The notes under the pieces: generated by a model
Told to the model about the DNA's origin: nothing
What the model saw: the letters and a program-made list of their open reading frames with translations, nothing else
Databases searched by the model: none
Made by a program: the position numbers and the translations under genes
Part shown: positions 1 to 7,819 of the stretch, piece after piece
How positions within the stretch are numbered: position 1 is the stretch's first letter
How the letters are laid out: each line of letters starts with the position of its first letter
Origin: Naegleria gruberi
Taxonomy: Eukaryota
Assembly: GCA_000004985.1 (NCBI GenBank)
Contig: GG738986.1
Length of the DNA stretch: 7,824 nt
Direction: 5' to 3' (one strand)

Positions 1-722
1 AAACAATCTATTGAGGAATTATAATGCCATTGATTGGGGGAATATTGTTGTTGCATGATCATTCTTCTTTGTATGGTGCTAATTGGACTGTTCATAATCC
101 AAGCACTTGCTGATGCTAATTGAGCTATCCCATATTTAGATATGACTCCTTTCACTCCCAAATCATTCCTGTAAGTATTCACTTCTCTCAATGAATCATT
201 TAATCCAAAATATAACGAACGATAAACCATTGCGCTCATTACTGAAATACCAGCCCCTTTAAACAACCCGAAATACTTTTCCATTCCACTACCCAATTGA
301 CCCACCCTAAATTTCATAATATTATCAAAAGGGAATCTCACAAATTCACAACAAGCACCTGCCAAACCACCACTCACAAACTGATTCACCACAAATCCAT
401 ATCCTCTCTGATCAACTGTTTGAAATGGTAAATAATTCTGCCTCTTTATCAAATCCTTGATGGCAAAATTAAAAACCACAGTATTTGGAAAGAACGATTT
501 GATCATGTTGAGTAAATTTCCTCTCCAAAACAAGAAACAAGCTTGCGGAAACTTGGGTTTTTCTGGGTGATGAAGGAGAATCATGAATCGATCAATTGGT
601 GCTGTTAATGTTCTTCCGATGGCTCGAGAAGCTCCTCCAATCAAGTAATCTGTAAGGAAGAGAAAATTTGTAGCCTTCCTGCTTGTGTTCACAAGTGTTT
701 CTTCTTGTGGTACACGAGACAT
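1..722 (-). CDS. Mitochondrial carrier family protein, ADP/ATP-translocase-like, divergent. N-terminal ~240 aa; the C-terminus runs off the left edge of the window.
   Basis: Manual minus-strand translation from ATG at 722..720 (Dictyostelium-style context aaaaaaaATG) is open to position 1. It reads MSRVPQEETLVNTSRKATNFLFLTDYLIGGASRAIGRTLTAPIDRFMILLHHPEKPKFPQACFLFWRGNLLNMIKSFFPNTVVFNFAIKDLIKRQNYLPFQTVDQRGYGFVVNQFVSGGLAGACCEFVRFPFDNIMKFRVGQLGSGMEKYFGLFKGAGISVMSAMVYRSLYFGLNDSLREVNTYRNDLGVKGVISKYGIAQLASASAWIMNSPISTIQRRMIMQQQYSPNQWHYNSSIDC... It matches ADP/ATP carrier hallmarks: FWRGNL.N.I..FP....NFA.KD, GL.+G.G.SV....VYR..YFG.YD, and ..P..T..RRMIMQ (ANT has RRRMMMQ). It shows the tripartite repeat architecture. 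The ORF track omits it because it has no in-window stop. Confidence 0.8.
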   Translation of the reverse strand, partial: MSRVPQEETLVNTSRKATNFLFLTDYLIGGASRAIGRTLTAPIDRFMILLHHPEKPKFPQACFLFWRGNLLNMIKSFFPNTVVFNFAIKDLIKRQNYLPFQTVDQRGYGFVVNQFVSGGLAGACCEFVRFPFDNIMKFRVGQLGSGMEKYFGLFKGAGISVMSAMVYRSLYFGLNDSLREVNTYRNDLGVKGVISKYGIAQLASASAWIMNSPISTIQRRMIMQQQYSPNQWHYNSSIDC

Positions 723-899
723 TTTTTTAAATAATGGTAATGAGATGGTCAACAATTTGAATTATTCCGTTTTGAATTTCTGTATACTGTCGATGAGTTT
801 CGAATATTGACCTTCCAATGAGTATCTTTGTCCAAACTCAAAAAAATCTTTTATTGCAATAATAACGAATCTATTCAGATTCTCTTTGAATTTGTAAAT

Positions 900-2231
900 T
901 TACATTGAGTCAATATAATAATATCTATAGGAGCGGCCGACAAAGTTAGAAATGGCTCCCTGGATCTCAGGCCATTTCTCTGCAATGTCTGGGTATTGTT
1001 GTACGTATCCATCTTCGAAGAATGTGGTTCCAGAATGGTGGAAGAAGAGTACATGGTGATGCTTTTCTGGTCTGAATTGAATATGAGTGAGTTTACACTC
1101 TCTCTGATCAAGAATATCAGATATTTTTGACAAGCAAAAGTATCTGGCACTATCCAGAGCAGGGCATTCATGAATATAGTGATTAAGGTCAGATTCTGTG
1201 TTACAATCATGACAGAAACTTTTACCCTCACCAAAATTGATGTGGGCATTTGAAGAGTTTCTCCAAATATAATATTTAGATTTAGGAGACAAATGGGATT
1301 TAAGGTAGCTGACGTTGATAGAGTTCCAATCTAGGTTAGGTATGTGATTGGGGTGACTCTCTATCTTGTCAAGCATTAGCCTTAAATGTTGTGAGGTAGT
1401 TAACCTCTTATAGTCAAAGATTATAATATCGTTCTTTGTGAGGATATATTGATTAAAGAGTAGTTTACGGATATCAAAGATTTTAGGTTTCAGAGTTGCA
1501 TTCTTTGCCAATAAATCAACTTTGATATTTTCCTTATCCTTATGAGCTTCAACTTTCTTGAATTCATATTCAAGTTTTCTATCCTTAATGGTTTTAAAGA
1601 AGGCTTTTTTTAGTGGTAGAAAGTTTCCCTTATATCGTTCTTTGAGAACTTCAATTGCCACATTACTATCAGTATGGATTTTAATCTTGGAGTCTCTTGG
1701 GATAACTTTAGCTGCTGTAATAATAGAGCATATTTCAGCTACATTATTTGAATATTGATCATTAATATGGAGGGATAAAGATCTAACTGGAGTGTTCATA
1801 TTGGAGCAATCATAGATATTAATCCCCATTCCAGTCTTTGATTCGAGTCTTGATCCGTCAGTGTGAATATCAAAATTATTTCCTGTTTTGATTTTTTTCA
1901 ACTTGAATTTCATTTCATTTTTCTTAAGTGTGAGGTTGTATTCTTTTAGTACTAGTAGCCATTTCGAATAAATATTGTCTTTCGTTTCCTCACAGTGCTT
2001 GATACCATGTTTGAAAGCTTTCTTGACGAGTAAATTGTTACTGTTAGCAATTAAGGTCATGGTTCTTAGGTTCATTCTTTCAGAAAATTCTACAATAGAT
2101 GGTAGTCCTAATCCACCTTTTTCTAATGGTAAGTGGAATAAGCTGGTTGGTGTTTTCCTGTCCATATATAGTTTTCTTCTAATTGCTCCTCTAATGGCTA
2201 TATCAATTTGAGATGAAAAGAAATATGGCAA
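900..2231 (-). mobile_element. 5'-truncated non-LTR (LINE, L1-like) retrotransposon ORF2 fragment with RT C-terminal thumb, RNase H domain and a C-terminal CCHC zinc knuckle. The 3' UTR presumably extends below 900; its boundary is undetermined.
   Basis: A 443-codon open frame has no internal stop. The RT thumb signature LPLEKGGLGLPS is at aa 34-45 (about 2097..2132). RNase H catalytic motifs are present: IHTDGS (D124), NNVAEICSIITAAK (E166), IHTDSNVAI (D188), VEAHKDKENIKVDLLAKNA (H230/D239), spanning about 1482..1889. The knuckle CHDCNTESDLNHYIHEC (CX2CX7HX4C) is at about 1164..1214. No upstream RT motifs (FADD etc.) are present. The reverse-complement frames upstream of 2231 are full of stops, so the element is 5'-truncated near 2213..2231. 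The track start is a TTG, not ATG. Confidence 0.85.
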
Positions 2232-3479: not shown

Positions 3480-4464
3480 ATGCCCTCTAAAAAGGTAAGA
3501 GAATTCCGTACCATGCAGTTACTCATTATTATAATGCCTCCTTTTCTCTCTAACTAACAACAACAACAAAATTTATAAATATTTTACATCATCATTATTT
3601 TCATCATCACAGAGTTCTAATAGTAAGAAAAAGAGTACATCTAAAAGTCAGTCCAAGAGCGAAAAATCTTCTGCTCCGCAACCACAGACTGTCAAACGAT
3701 CAACAACTCTTGAATCACAAATCACTACTCTAAATGATTTTTGGAGAACATTAAACTTTGGCACAAGGAAAAAACTTCTTCATGTTGATGCCTGTTCATT
3801 GCTAAAAAAGACAAAGGAACAATATCAAAGAGTGTGTTCGTGCACTGTTTGTGGTAGAAACAAATCTATTCTTGATAGAGAATTGGATAGACTTTTTACT
3901 GATTACTGCAAAGAACTTGCATATCAGAATCATGTTGATTGTGTATTCAATTTTTGTAGCACCTCCAACTCATCAGACAGATCTAAACTTCGCAACAACT
4001 CACGAAGTCCAAAAACAACTAAGAGAACCGTCATCAGCAATGGAACTGAAATGTTAACCACAACAACCGTAAAGAAAAGTGGTAACGTACGAGTTATTGA
4101 AAAAACTGTAAAATACTATTCTACAACAAAAGTAAATCCAAATGACAAAGCAAGTAGTCCTATTATTGAAGATATCACAGAGGATAATAGAGAAAAGGCT
4201 ATTTCTAAACAGAGTCAAACTAATGGTTCAAACACCGAACCAATAGATTCGAAAAACGGTTCACAACAAAATAATCAGCATTTACCACCACCTCCACCTA
4301 TTCAACCTGAAGATAGTCAAGAAGATAGTGTTCAGTATGACTTTGGAAAGAATCTTTCGATCAGTCGAGAAGGTATCATAACAATCTCCGAGGATTGGAT
4401 AAAGCAAAACGAATCCAACGATATTATCCATTTATTACAAAAATTTGAACATAATATCAAACAC
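3480..4464 (+). CDS. Partial gene with a Ser/Lys-rich N-terminus and a CSCxVCGR motif, possibly Nst1-family-like. Exon 1 is 3480..3494, exon 2 is 3613..4464, and the gene continues into the assembly gap.
   Basis: aaaaaaaATGCCCTCTAAAAAG followed by GTAAGA, then ...tcatcatcacAG|AGT. The exon 2 frame is open from 3613 with no in-frame ATG, GTG or TTG before 3799, so an upstream exon is required. Spliced N-terminus: MPSKK|SSNSKKKSTSKSQSKSEKSS...LNDFWRTLNFGTRKKLLHVDACSLLKKTKEQYQRVCSCTVCGRNKSILDRELDRLFTDYCKELAYQNH. The central motif resembles my recollection of the conserved N-terminal region of fungal stress-response protein Nst1 (CxCxVCGR...EEL..LY..YY.EL). That is recalled, not searched. Confidence 0.6.
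3495..3612 (+). other. Intron (118 bp, GTAAGA...CAG) following a 15-nt first exon
   Basis: Canonical donor gtaaga at 3495 and acceptor cag ending at 3612. Phase 0/0 joins exon 1 to the open exon 2 frame. Its AT content is lower than a typical D. discoideum intron (it contains ccgtaccatgcag and gcctcc). Confidence 0.6.
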
Positions 4465-6761
4465 NNNNNNNNNNNNNNNNNNNNNNNNNNNNNNNNNNNN
4501 NNNNNNNNNNNNNNNNNNNNNNNNNNNNNNNNNNNNNNNNNNNNNNNNNNNNNNNNNNNNNNNNNNNNNNNNNNNNNNNNNNNNNNNNNNNNNNNNNNNN
4601 NNNNNNNNNNNNNNNNNNNNNNNNNNNNNNNNNNNNNNNNNNNNNNNNNNNNNNNNNNNNNNNNNNNNNNNNNNNNNNNNNNNNNNNNNNNNNNNNNNNN
4701 NNNNNNNNNNNNNNNNNNNNNNNNNNNNNNNNNNNNNNNNNNNNNNNNNNNNNNNNNNNNNNNNNNNNNNNNNNNNNNNNNNNNNNNNNNNNNNNNNNNN
4801 NNNNNNNNNNNNNNNNNNNNNNNNNNNNNNNNNNNNNNNNNNNNNNNNNNNNNNNNNNNNNNNNNNNNNNNNNNNNNNNNNNNNNNNNNNNNNNNNNNNN
4901 NNNNNNNNNNNNNNNNNNNNNNNNNNNNNNNNNNNNNNNNNNNNNNNNNNNNNNNNNNNNNNNNNNNNNNNNNNNNNNNNNNNNNNNNNNNNNNNNNNNN
5001 NNNNNNNNNNNNNNNNNNNNNNNNNNNNNNNNNNNNNNNNNNNNNNNNNNNNNNNNNNNNNNNNNNNNNNNNNNNNNNNNNNNNNNNNNNNNNNNNNNNN
5101 NNNNNNNNNNNNNNNNNNNNNNNNNNNNNNNNNNNNNNNNNNNNNNNNNNNNNNNNNNNNNNNNNNNNNNNNNNNNNNNNNNNNNNNNNNNNNNNNNNNN
5201 NNNNNNNNNNNNNNNNNNNNNNNNNNNNNNNNNNNNNNNNNNNNNNNNNNNNNNNNNNNNNNNNNNNNNNNNNNNNNNNNNNNNNNNNNNNNNNNNNNNN
5301 NNNNNNNNNNNNNNNNNNNNNNNNNNNNNNNNNNNNNNNNNNNNNNNNNNNNNNNNNNNNNNNNNNNNNNNNNNNNNNNNNNNNNNNNNNNNNNNNNNNN
5401 NNNNNNNNNNNNNNNNNNNNNNNNNNNNNNNNNNNNNNNNNNNNNNNNNNNNNNNNNNNNNNNNNNNNNNNNNNNNNNNNNNNNNNNNNNNNNNNNNNNN
5501 NNNNNNNNNNNNNNNNNNNNNNNNNNNNNNNNNNNNNNNNNNNNNNNNNNNNNNNNNNNNNNNNNNNNNNNNNNNNNNNNNNNNNNNNNNNNNNNNNNNN
5601 NNNNNNNNNNNNNNNNNNNNNNNNNNNNNNNNNNNNNNNNNNNNNNNNNNNNNNNNNNNNNNNNNNNNNNNNNNNNNNNNNNNNNNNNNNNNNNNNNNNN
5701 NNNNNNNNNNNNNNNNNNNNNNNNNNNNNNNNNNNNNNNNNNNNNNNNNNNNNNNNNNNNNNNNNNNNNNNNNNNNNNNNNNNNNNNNNNNNNNNNNNNN
5801 NNNNNNNNNNNNNNNNNNNNNNNNNNNNNNNNNNNNNNNNNNNNNNNNNNNNNNNNNNNNNNNNNNNNNNNNNNNNNNNNNNNNNNNNNNNNNNNNNNNN
5901 NNNNNNNNNNNNNNNNNNNNNNNNNNNNNNNNNNNNNNNNNNNNNNNNNNNNNNNNNNNNNNNNNNNNNNNNNNNNNNNNNNNNNNNNNNNNNNNNNNNN
6001 NNNNNNNNNNNNNNNNNNNNNNNNNNNNNNNNNNNNNNNNNNNNNNNNNNNNNNNNNNNNNNNNNNNNNNNNNNNNNNNNNNNNNNNNNNNNNNNNNNNN
6101 NNNNNNNNNNNNNNNNNNNNNNNNNNNNNNNNNNNNNNNNNNNNNNNNNNNNNNNNNNNNNNNNNNNNNNNNNNNNNNNNNNNNNNNNNNNNNNNNNNNN
6201 NNNNNNNNNNNNNNNNNNNNNNNNNNNNNNNNNNNNNNNNNNNNNNNNNNNNNNNNNNNNNNNNNNNNNNNNNNNNNNNNNNNNNNNNNNNNNNNNNNNN
6301 NNNNNNNNNNNNNNNNNNNNNNNNNNNNNNNNNNNNNNNNNNNNNNNNNNNNNNNNNNNNNNNNNNNNNNNNNNNNNNNNNNNNNNNNNNNNNNNNNNNN
6401 NNNNNNNNNNNNNNNNNNNNNNNNNNNNNNNNNNNNNNNNNNNNNNNNNNNNNNNNNNNNNNNNNNNNNNNNNNNNNNNNNNNNNNNNNNNNNNNNNNNN
6501 NNNNNNNNNNNNNNNNNNNNNNNNNNNNNNNNNNNNNNNNNNNNNNNNNNNNNNNNNNNNNNNNNNNNNNNNNNNNNNNNNNNNNNNNNNNNNNNNNNNN
6601 NNNNNNNNNNNNNNNNNNNNNNNNNNNNNNNNNNNNNNNNNNNNNNNNNNNNNNNNNNNNNNNNNNNNNNNNNNNNNNNNNNNNNNNNNNNNNNNNNNNN
6701 NNNNNNNNNNNNNNNNNNNNNNNNNNNNNNNNNNNNNNNNNNNNNNNNNNNNNNNNNNNNN
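4465..6761. other. Assembly gap (2297 N)
   Basis: Continuous n run. The long ORFs in the track spanning this interval are poly-X artefacts. Confidence 0.99.
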
Positions 6762-6839: not shown

Positions 6840-7819
6840 ATGGCCATTTCTTTCTTTTCAGTAACTTCAATTCTATCTGTCTTTTTGACAAAATACTTGA
6901 TGGATATGGGTGAATATTCATTTCATTTTCCATTAACTATGGCTTGGTTTCATTTGATTGTCTCATTGTTGTGTATTATTTGTACTTATAATTTAAATAG
7001 GTTGGTAATTGATTTATTCAAAGGTTGAAAAAAACTAATCATTTAATTAGAACTTGTTTTAGTTTCTTACCAGATTTTGAATTTAAATTTGATACAGCAG
7101 TACAAATAGCTCCTGTATCATTGTGTTATGTTGGAATGGTTACTTTTAATAATTTGTGTTTGGATTATGCAGATATTCACACCTACCACACTGCAAGAAG
7201 TATTAGTATTTGTTTCACGGTGATTTTCACATCAGTTTTATTGGGAGAAAAAGTTCAGAAGAGAATTATTGGAGCATGTTTAATGATTGCTATTGGATAT
7301 TTCATGACTGGATTTGAAGAATTACAACTTTCTAAAATGCAGTCGATTGGATTTGCTTTTGGATTGATGTCCAGTTGCTTTATGGCACTTTATTCAATTT
7401 ATTTGAAGAAATTAATGTCCTCCTCACACAGAAATCATTGGATTATTCTAATTTATAACGTTGTTTGTGCCATTTTGTTTTTATTCCCTGTTTGCTATTT
7501 TACAGGAGAATTTGAAAAGGCAATTTCTGTTAATTATTTATTTGAACCAAAGTTTTTAGCAATTCTCACAACAACAGCCCTAATAGCATACGTTGTAAAT
7601 ATTTCTAATTTCATGTTAATTAGTTATACCTCTCCATTGACTACTTCTGTCACTATTTCAATGAAATCTGTTGTGGAATCATTTTTATCATTTGCAGTTC
7701 ACAATACTCATGTTTCTACTTATGGATTATTGTCTTCTGCATTTACAGTAGTTGGAACCTATCTCTATTCATACTTTAAAGTGAAAGATAAGAGAGAATT
7801 TGAAGGATTAGTAGATTAG
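6840..7819 (+). CDS. Nucleotide-sugar transporter, SLC35C / GDP-fucose transporter-like (TPT/DMT superfamily). Exon 1 is 6840..7000, exon 2 starts at 7051 or 7063 and ends at 7819. About 305-309 aa.
   Basis: Exon 1: MAISFFSVTSILSVFLTKYLMDMGEYSFHFPLTMAWFHLIVSLLCIICTYNLN. Exon 2: ...FLPDFEFKFDTAVQIAPVSLCYVGMVTFNNLCLDYADIHTYHTARSISICFTVIFTSVLLGEKVQKRIIGACLMIAIGYF... ISYTSPLTTSVTISMKSV... It aligns with recalled human SLC35C1 ([54 protein letters not shown]...LTCGIIIGGF; FTSPLTHNVSGTAKA). The protein is multi-pass hydrophobic and the stop tag is at 7817..7819. The two ORF-track frames (6840 and 7025) overlap, which requires an intron or a frameshift. Confidence 0.85.
7001..7062 (+). other. Putative short intron of the SLC35C-like gene. 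Donor gttggt at 7001; acceptor AG at 7049-7050 (50-bp intron) or 7061-7062 (62-bp intron).
   Basis: Only a GT at 7001 (exon 1 ends in phase 2, ..aat ag) is phase-compatible with exon 2 starting at 7051 (ag+a gives R) or 7063 (ag+t gives S). Both restore an alignment to the SLC35C1 loop region. The gtaatt at 7005 is phase-incompatible with any nearby AG. The GTTGGT donor is weak, so a sequencing frameshift is the alternative. Confidence 0.45.

Follow-up and report, generated by a model that had tools for sequence, protein, structure and literature searches.

A divergent ADP/ATP carrier paralogue of Naegleria gruberi with altered matrix-gate motifs and reduced matrix helices

Identification of the carrier gene

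The analysis of a 7,824-nucleotide stretch of Naegleria gruberi DNA (GenBank assembly GCA_000004985.1, contig GG738986.1; hereafter, the window) led us to a gene at its left end, on the minus strand, that encodes a mitochondrial ADP/ATP carrier (ANT) paralogue with altered matrix-gate motifs and a retained cytoplasmic salt-bridge network. The reading that we favour, and which sequence comparison and structure prediction make somewhat better than an even bet, is that the product is an ANT-derived carrier fold, conformationally biased and partly constrained by selection, in a non-exchange role. Normal ATP export by the window protein appears very unlikely from its residues. Since both N. gruberi copies of the protein were found among mitochondrial proteins, the window copy about 350-fold below the canonical ANT, it is neither the housekeeping translocase nor a dead pseudogene.

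The open reading frame (ORF), in translation, runs from an ATG at 722-720 to position 3, comprising 240 codons without a stop, and exits the scaffold at its left end. The other five frames over the same stretch have 10-22 stops apiece, and the chance of 240 open codons, computed from base composition, is about 1e-8. Pfam Mito_carr (PF00153) matches the fragment of 240 amino acids (aa) in three stretches (E=3e-15); these three repeats, together with six long helices in an AlphaFold2 model of a full-length copy (predicted template modelling score, pTM, 0.83), place the protein in the SLC25/Mito_carr family. Among solved structures, the top sequence matches are ADP/ATP carriers, with bovine 1okc first (E=9.5e-22), followed by yeast AAC2/3 and the Thermothelomyces carrier 6gci (PDB entries at the top: 1okc, 4c9j, 4c9g and 6gci). 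The closest relatives are ADP/ATP carriers by both sequence and structure, and not members of a non-ANT carrier subfamily. In addition, a cytoplasmic loop insertion, NDLGVKG, is typical of the protist-type ANT lineage represented by Naegleria and Balamuthia, and as a sequence mark it points to the parentage of the window paralogue in that lineage.

The first-pass annotation of this DNA, made from the letters alone, had described the minus-strand ORF as open and ANT-like, and our analysis bears this out; every string that it quoted is present in the translation (VYRSLYFG at aa 166-173; FWRGN, PIDRFM, PFDNIMK, PISTIQRRMIMQ and HHPEKPKFPQAC at the residues given in Table 1). It had also called the gene unlisted, which holds for the ORF track only: GenBank has an identical entry under XP_002668657.1 ("predicted protein, partial [Naegleria gruberi]"). 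The reference group that it had proposed, Amoebozoa, was misplaced, the source being a heterolobosean.

The approximately 44 C-terminal residues that lie beyond the scaffold end are supplied by a full-length copy, XP_002681394.1 (EFC48650.1, UniProt D2V3J9), a protein of 284 aa named "ATP/ADP translocator" that belongs to the same 90% cluster and is encoded on a 707,703-bp scaffold. The two proteins are identical at 236 of 240 positions (98%), the differences being R3H, V4A, T102A and Q218H, of which only the last falls within a motif. Naegleria has been described as mainly a heterozygous diploid (PMC9928731), and the window is a small unplaced scaffold with an allele or very recent duplicate of the D2V3J9 gene. 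The unusual motif residues are not sequencing noise, as the independently assembled copy has the same motifs save Q218H. Unrecognised introns were considered as an artefact behind the deletions described below and were rejected, because introns add sequence rather than remove it and the ORF is contiguous genomic DNA.

Loss of the matrix gate and matrix helices

The matrix gate of ADP/ATP carriers, composed of a network of salt bridges plus glutamine braces on helices H1, H3 and H5, shuts the carrier toward the matrix in the cytoplasmic-open state, and three cardiolipins tether the matrix helices to the even-numbered helices (PMC12410006, from which our definitions of gates, contact points and cardiolipin tethers were taken). 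Our alignment set the window protein and the full-length copy beside bovine ANT1 and beside canonical ANTs from N. gruberi (XP_002668652.1), N. fowleri (P0110) and Balamuthia (P0035). As read on first inspection, all three PX[DE]XX[KR] motifs are altered when set against the canonical ANTs, to PIDRFM, PFDNIM(K) and PISTIQ. On H1 the change is K32M, and the glutamine brace Q36, four residues on, is replaced by His; on H3, R137M is accompanied by a Lys one residue out of register; on H5, D231S and R234Q (His in the other copy) are found and the R235/R236 equivalents are retained. The H5 segment PISTIQRRMIMQ corresponds to the ANT signature RRRMMM (RRRLQM in the canonical Naegleria ANT), which reads QRRMIM in the window copy and HRRMIM in D2V3J9, with loss of the first Arg (R234). 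Judging from the aligned residues, none of the three inter-domain matrix salt bridges would be able to form in register.

The matrix helices are reduced as well. In repeat 1, FWRGN follows the end of the H1 motif after 19 aa, versus 38 in bovine ANT1 and 40 in the Naegleria canonical ANT; a short loop, HHPEKPKFPQAC, stands in place of the M1 loop and h12, and the approximately 19-21 aa that are gone take the [YWF][KR]G cardiolipin-site motif with them. In repeat 2, the H3 motif is separated from H4 by 19 aa, versus 37 (bovine) and 35-36 (Naegleria), and VGQLGSGMEKYFG is what remains of the M2 loop after a deletion of about 17 aa that includes h34, of which a six-residue helix is left. The third matrix helix, h56, is present, and its cardiolipin-site motif reads YNS versus Y[KT]G. 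The loss of h12 and the shortening of repeat 2 had been recognised in the first-pass annotation with smaller sizes (about 16 and about 10 aa, respectively), and the removal of h34 had been missed.

Cytoplasmic gate and substrate site

On the cytoplasmic side, the network [YF][DE]XX[KR] of H2, H4 and H6 is retained through the equivalents of D92/K95 (in the IKDLIK stretch of H2), D195/R198 (H4) and D291 (H6); position 294 is His in the full-length copy versus Gln in the canonical Naegleria ANT. FWRGN, at the start of H2, is conserved as in ANTs, and downstream of it contact point I is Lys (R79K), beside a one-residue insertion (IKSFFPNT). The H4 segment VYRSLYFGLNDSLR also keeps the Y186/R187 equivalents, and its changes are G182S, I183A and the replacement of the tyrosine brace by Asn. 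In H6 of the full-length copy, a 2-aa deletion puts Asn at the contact-point-III position R279, with the nearest Arg three residues upstream. The set of contact points (K22, R79, R279, G182/I183/Y186 and R235) is not preserved as a whole: K22R and R79K are conservative changes, and Y186 and R235 are kept.

Predicted structure

AlphaFold2, run on full-length D2V3J9 with an alignment of 38 sequences, produced a model with a mean predicted local distance difference test score of 85.4. It contains no helix between H1 (15-51) and H2 (58-94), a six-residue helix (148-153) at the h34 site and a normal h56 (237-247). The nearest PDB structure is 6gci, bongkrekate-inhibited and matrix-open, with a template modelling (TM) score of 0.71 and a root-mean-square deviation (rmsd) of 4.7 A, versus TM scores of 0.46-0.54 (bovine 1okc 0.53) and rmsd of 7.1-8.7 A for the carboxyatractyloside-bound, cytoplasmic-open structures. 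All Foldseek matches of the model at E<=0.001 are carriers. As a control, the 38 sequences were used again to model the canonical N. fowleri ANT; this model was nearest to cytoplasmic-open 1okc (TM 0.78, rmsd 3.3 A), and 6gci ranked tenth. The predicted structure agrees with a matrix-open bias, and we take it as supporting evidence only.

Relatives and pattern of constraint

In a HMMER scan of 1.84 billion representative proteins, only the window protein itself scored below E=1e-30, the next match having E=2.6e-28. The nearest non-self relatives in this representative library are ANTs with 36-38% identity. Identity of the canonical N. fowleri ANT is 88% with the Balamuthia ANT and 36% with the window protein; the window paralogue has evolved far faster than its parent ANT. 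The identity of 88% between P0110, from a heterolobosean, and P0035, from the amoebozoan Balamuthia mandrillaris, is itself a sign of either unusually high conservation or lateral transfer between eukaryotic supergroups. Among the protist-type ANTs are also two sequences assigned to a frog and to barley, P0112 (UniProt A8E615, "Xenopus laevis") and P0343 (F2DZ59, "Hordeum vulgare"); they have at least 80% identity to amoeba-type ANTs and are likely contaminant protist cDNAs.

Loop lengths were scored over the 150 best matches, and two sequences share the architecture of the window protein. P0145 is a complete ORF of 258 aa on two environmental contigs (L001 and L002; ENA metagenome), 36% identical to the window protein. 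Its loop lengths are 19/19, and it has in common with the N. gruberi protein the 2-aa deletion in H6 and the remnant G(M/L)EKYF. Its losses go beyond those of the window protein and comprise K22S, R79L, the whole H1 motif and the RRR signature, replaced by NSQ. P0143 is a fragment of 103 aa, 52% identical to the window protein; it contains PIDRFE and shares with the window protein both the h12 deletion and the KSF(F/L)PNTVVFN insertion. Because three indels are shared, common ancestry of the window protein with P0145 and P0143 would be the simplest reading of the sequences. The neighbor-joining tree grouped XP_002669219.1 (a further N. gruberi paralogue, see below), D2V3J9 and P0145 at 48.5% bootstrap, all on long branches; it was uninformative, and we relied on the shared indels. 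The DNA of L001 and L002 is identical over the P0145 gene and gives no information on selection. No further family members were obtained from a profile search of a 5.8-billion-protein collection or from a metagenome locus scan with the family alignment.

Downstream of P0145, at 1796-5422 of L001, two genes join DUF4116 repeats and protein-kinase domains; the contig is very AT-rich and the gene has 28% GC. Many other environmental ANT-like proteins of protist type (P0131, P0140, P0174/P0284, P0224, P0267 and P0133) have an H1-H2 loop of 10-26 residues versus about 40, with h12 reduced or lost and the H3 and H5 motifs mostly kept. From these sequences, h12 loss seems to be either repeated among environmental ANT-like proteins or the mark of an older subfamily.

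The distribution of conservation was compared by splitting the alignment into cytoplasmic-side and matrix-side halves and applying Fisher tests to identity in the matrix-half transmembrane segments and on the cytoplasmic side. Between bovine and N. gruberi canonical ANTs, identity is 73% in the matrix half and 45% on the cytoplasmic side (p=1e-4). The order is reversed within the divergent clade, where the matrix-side half is the least conserved part: D2V3J9 and P0145 share 18% of the matrix half and 44% of the cytoplasmic side (p=5e-4), and against the canonical ANT the corresponding values are 27% and 50% for P0145 (p=0.003) and 35% and 50% for D2V3J9 (p=0.05). Moreover, the P0145 ORF is open against a chance of about 1e-10, beside the value of about 1e-8 for the window ORF. 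Since divergence is biased by region and the ORFs are open, these data indicate continued selection on part of the protein, with constraint released on the gate and helices of the matrix side and on the binding site.

Detection in mitochondrial fractions

Horváthová et al. (2021; PMC8134430) used OptiPrep gradients to separate the organelles of N. gruberi. In three sub-fractions, 4198 proteins were quantified, and 946 putative mitochondrial proteins were defined by co-fractionation with markers. Values for four ANT-like proteins, taken from the mitochondrial sheet (sheet 1) of Supplementary Data 2 of that study, are given in Table 2. Of 14 samples, 11 gave a value for the window protein, whose signal climbs toward the most mitochondria-rich fraction in parallel to that of the canonical ANT, XP_002668652.1, whose motifs are intact (PIERVK/PLDYAR/PFDTVRRRLQMQ). 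The window protein is thus shown to be made and to co-fractionate with mitochondria at low abundance, and it is the more abundant of the two divergent copies. A peptide unique to the window copy must include residue 3/4, 102 or 218. The coverage of 19.7% corresponds to three fully tryptic variant peptides (47/239 aa), one spanning PISTIQR, and is consistent with that reading only, as 15 other combinations fit too.

Table 2. ANT-like proteins of N. gruberi in the mitochondrial proteome of PMC8134430 (log2 label-free quantification, LFQ, over the three sub-fractions).
Protein	Description	Unique peptides	Coverage	log2 LFQ
XP_002668657.1	window protein	3	19.7%	22.2 / 23.4 / 25.8
XP_002681394.1	full-length copy	3	21.8%	23.0 (densest fraction only)
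XP_002668652.1	canonical ANT, motifs all intact	47	94.2%	31.4 / 32.8 / 34.3
XP_002672678.1	second canonical-like ANT	17	66.4%	25.9 / 27.5 / 29.3

The presence of XP_002668652.1, with its roughly 350-fold greater abundance, and of XP_002672678.1 agrees with the earlier suspicion that the housekeeping translocase is encoded elsewhere than by the window gene; other ANTs exist in the genome, and expression of this locus is not high. Two further ANT-like paralogues of N. gruberi, XP_002669219.1 and XP_002682156.1, occur in the same proteome and are more abundant than the window protein. They have degenerate matrix motifs (e.g., PLFTAA / PLAYVR / PLETVERK) and keep h12 and h34. Degenerate ANT duplicates seem to be recurrent in N. 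gruberi and common in these protists.

Proposed role and alternative explanations

We propose that the gene arose by duplication of a protist-type mitochondrial ADP/ATP carrier followed by very fast divergence. The sequence shows that the six-helix carrier fold and the cytoplasmic salt-bridge network are retained, and that the matrix salt bridges, the glutamine brace, h12 and h34 with their cardiolipin-site motifs, the R234 equivalent and the in-register contact-point-III Arg are lost. Because alternating access depends on two gates together with a substrate site that is linked to them, such losses would rule out a strict ADP/ATP exchange cycle for the window protein. With no matrix network, two matrix helices gone, contact point III out of register and the cytoplasmic network intact, the protein would be expected to prefer a matrix-open-like state, closed to the intermembrane space. 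Its role may then be a non-exchange one, of which an accessory or structural subunit in a membrane would be one example and a ligand-binding module that faces the matrix another, with selection now acting mainly on the cytoplasmic-side half. A bolder proposal, in our opinion rather unlikely, is that the protein represents a small Naegleria-lineage family of ANT descent, locked matrix-open and recruited to a non-transport job in the inner membrane. Like the carrier-fold subunits of ciliate complex IV, members of such a family may be fixed accessory components of a complex (respiratory, ATP-synthase or import), or they may be matrix-facing nucleotide-binding modules.

Several observations weigh against a partly constrained, conformationally biased protein in a non-exchange role. 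As regards conformation, AlphaFold2 gives no energetics, and the top-ranked model only was compared with known structures. As regards constraint, evolution within the clade is fast, four aa in 240 separate the N. gruberi copies, and no orthologue was found among the annotated N. fowleri proteins, all of which fits weak constraint; moreover, the boundaries of the two halves used in the conservation test, which follow the topology of bovine 1OKC, are approximate. As regards location, the proteome assigns the window protein to mitochondria and not to a specific membrane, and the protein may be among the 376 homology-chosen markers of PMC8134430, although its own enrichment profile still supports co-fractionation. 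Finally, since K22R, R79K, Y186, R187, R235 and R236 survive among the substrate-site residues of the N. gruberi protein, and arginines are found at a distance of 1-3 residues from the contact-point-III position, the protein may still bind or transport some anion.

This last point leads to the explanation that competes best with ours, to which we give a minor but real chance: the protein may still be a transporter with a changed mode or substrate. It could switch states without substrate on one side and so carry nucleotides, or some other anion, by uniport or in a leak-type manner. Besides the surviving substrate-site residues, the confidently predicted fold and the retained cytoplasmic network would suit such a function. 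Unequal network strengths were reportedly proposed by Robinson, Overy and Kunji in 2008 to allow net transport. Some SLC25 members are uniporters, and many are of undefined mode (PMC12410006). However, almost none of these residues is left in P0145 (K22S, R79L, RRR to NSQ), which yet keeps its ORF and its cytoplasmic-side half, so the clade as a whole is not constrained on the binding site. In addition, contact point III, which is "nearly always positively charged" in carriers (PMC12410006), is out of register, and two of the three matrix helices that cardiolipins tether are missing.

Less probable still, in our view, is that the gene is a duplicate under relaxed constraint that is being lost, with low-level transcription and translation and mitochondrial import but no function. 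The extreme divergence (36% identity, versus 88% among canonical ANTs), the degenerate functional motifs and the low abundance would be expected of such a gene, as would the four differences between the copies, one of them at a motif position, the apparent absence of an annotated N. fowleri orthologue and the existence of other degenerate ANT-like paralogues in N. gruberi. Against this, three diverged lineages keep the frame, at chances of about 1e-8 to 1e-10 each, after about 64% aa divergence; the three shared indels imply an old lineage; the divergence is concentrated on the matrix side rather than even; and the protein accumulates in the organelle in most replicates. The open frame, the peptides in mitochondrial fractions and the regionally biased divergence are not those of a dead duplicate. 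The first-pass annotation had left the choice between a neofunctionalised and a decaying ANT paralogue; the ANT derivation holds, the nearest non-self relatives being ANTs, and decay is disfavoured by the detection of peptides, the ORF kept in relatives and the non-uniform conservation.

As to origin alone, the gene could be a retrogene made by the machinery of a neighbouring retroelement, as it is intronless over 720 nt and lies 177 bp from an upstream retroelement ORF with an RNase H domain. We regard this as very improbable. The relative P0145 lies on an unrelated environmental contig with DUF4116 and kinase neighbours and no retroelement, the carrier lineage is older than the split of these organisms, and the window contains no poly(A) tract or target-site duplication tied to the carrier gene, whose 3' end is outside. 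The idea of a housekeeping ADP/ATP translocase with lineage-normal residues or sequencing errors, suggested by the GenBank name of the full-length copy ("ATP/ADP translocator"), is refuted, since two independently assembled copies share the degenerate motifs, the ANTs of N. fowleri and Balamuthia have intact motifs, and an intact canonical ANT is far more abundant in the same organelles.

The ADP/ATP carrier serves as the model for alternating access across SLC25, a mechanism of which the matrix gate, the matrix helices and the bound cardiolipins are considered an integral part. If the locked family described above is real, it would constitute a natural experiment on the matrix helices and the matrix gate in the carrier cycle. 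A stable and functional protein of this kind would offer a probe of the necessity of the matrix elements, a candidate carrier stabilised in the rarely captured matrix-open state, and a further case of a transporter fold recruited elsewhere. Degenerate carriers are already known from other lineages, which limits the weight of the finding. On the practical side, the label "ATP/ADP translocator" of D2V3J9 is misleading, and metabolic reconstructions of Naegleria should not count D2V3J9 as one. We found no mention of the XP accessions in the main text of papers and nothing specific in the Naegleria ANT literature; the degenerate architecture seems to be undescribed, although the gene itself is already in databases.

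Neighbouring retroelement ORF and other features of the window

Upstream of the carrier gene, on the same strand, lies an ORF of 443 aa (Table 1) with an RNase_H domain (PF00075, E=1.4e-11, nt 1497-1871) and a C-terminal CX2CX8HX3HXC cluster (CHDCNTESDLNHYIHEC). It had been labelled a fragment of ORF2 of a long interspersed nuclear element. The RNase H part of that label was verified, no reverse-transcriptase domain was found, and the label is plausible. Pfam searches, including a relaxed one, revealed no RVT, endonuclease or integrase domain in the window, and a PDB search found no solved-structure relative of this ORF, whose frame is closed by stops just upstream, at 2232-2240. It is probably the 3' part of a 5'-truncated retroelement without long terminal repeats, and a neighbour rather than a part of the carrier gene. 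The spacer between its stop and the carrier ATG ends in A7 directly before the ATG, and the carrier promoter and 5' untranslated region must lie in this spacer or inside the element. The retroelement is no bar to expression, as the proteome contains more of the window copy than of the full-length one, and nothing links the element to the origin of the carrier gene.

In the remainder of the window, runs of N at 2595-2644 (50 bases) and 4465-6761 (2297 bases) are assembly gaps, the larger of which swallows the 3' part of the ORF starting at 3799 and yields long "X" ORFs in the six-frame list. The first approximately 47 residues of that ORF match Pfam NST1 (salt tolerance down-regulator, E=3.7e-8). 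Near the right end lies an ORF assigned to the triose-phosphate/nucleotide-sugar transporters (Pfam TPT, E=4.7e-20, with EamA and UAA matching too); a short hydrophobic ORF just before it, at 6840-7028 (+), may be its first exon. Two Asn-rich, low-complexity ORFs without family match overlap tail to tail, and a 33-bp imperfect tandem repeat was observed at 2825-2887. No tRNA or Rfam family was found in the window.

Table 1. Features of the window, with positions in nucleotides and residues of the encoded protein.
Feature	Position	Strand	Residues	Basis
ANT-like carrier gene, first 240 codons (XP_002668657.1, partial)	1..722	-		ORF, Pfam, PDB, GenBank matches
H5 motif PISTIQRRMIMQ	51..86	-	213-224	alignment
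NDLGVKG, cytoplasmic loop insertion	147..167	-	186-192	
H4 segment VYRSLYFGLNDSLR	186..227	-	166-179	alignment
M2 loop remnant VGQLGSGMEKYFG	267..305	-	140-152	alignment, AlphaFold2 model
H3 matrix motif PFDNIMK	312..332	-	131-137	alignment
H2 cytoplasmic-network residues IKDLIK	444..461	-	88-93	alignment
FWRGN, start of H2	516..530	-	65-69	alignment
Short loop HHPEKPKFPQAC	537..572	-	51-62	alignment, AlphaFold2 model
H1 matrix motif PIDRFM	582..599	-	42-47	alignment
Spacer of 177 bp, retroelement-ORF stop to carrier ATG	723..899	-		sequence
ORF of 443 aa with RNase_H domain	900..2231	-		Pfam
Asn-rich ORF, 237 aa	2213-2926	+		
Asn-rich ORF, 180 aa	2918-3460	-		
ORF with NST1 match, enters assembly gap	3799-4464	+		Pfam
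ORF of 264 aa, TPT family	7025-7819	+		Pfam

Comparison with known systems

With the canonical ANT (AAC/ANT, SLC25A4-6; XP_002668652.1; 1OKC, 4C9H, 6GCI) the window protein shares three Mito_carr repeats, the six-helix fold, FWRGN, YR..YFG of H4, R235/R236 of RRRMMM, the cytoplasmic network and the protist-type loop signatures NDLGxxG and PxxQWxY. Unlike the canonical ANT, it is without the three matrix salt bridges, the glutamine brace, h12 and R234, and its h34 is vestigial; contact point III is displaced by the 2-aa H6 deletion in the full-length copy, and D2V3J9 is modelled as matrix-open-like and not cytoplasmic-open. Its identity to the canonical protein is 36%, whereas canonical ANTs keep 80-88% across supergroups.

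The reduced architecture recurs in P0145 and P0143, which have the h12 deletion and, within the clade, the segments "KSF(F/L)PNTVVFN", "PIDRF" and "G(M/L)EKYF", with the h34 and H6 deletions in P0145. They differ from the window protein in being 36% and 52% identical to it, respectively, and in the further absence of K22, R79, the H1 motif and RRR from P0145. XP_002669219.1 is likewise ANT-derived, with degenerate matrix motifs, and belongs to the same mitochondrial proteome, but it keeps h12 and h34 and is without the three shared indels.

Diverged carrier folds that have lost gate features and perform non-transport roles have been described in the outer-membrane insertases MTCH1 and MTCH2 and in SLC25A46/Ugo1, which acts in mitochondrial dynamics (PMC12410006, PMC12934571). 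These proteins are holozoan or fungal, are neither ANT-derived nor orthologous to the window protein, and reside in the outer membrane. MTCH2 has lost a transmembrane helix, whereas the Naegleria protein keeps six and has lost matrix helices. In Tetrahymena complex IV, COXMC1-3 (7W5Z M1-M3, 8B6H) are carrier folds built into a protist respiratory complex as fixed accessory subunits (PMC10060162). They rank 13-15 among the structural matches of the D2V3J9 model, weaker than ANTs, have 16-18% sequence identity and are not orthologous to the Naegleria protein.

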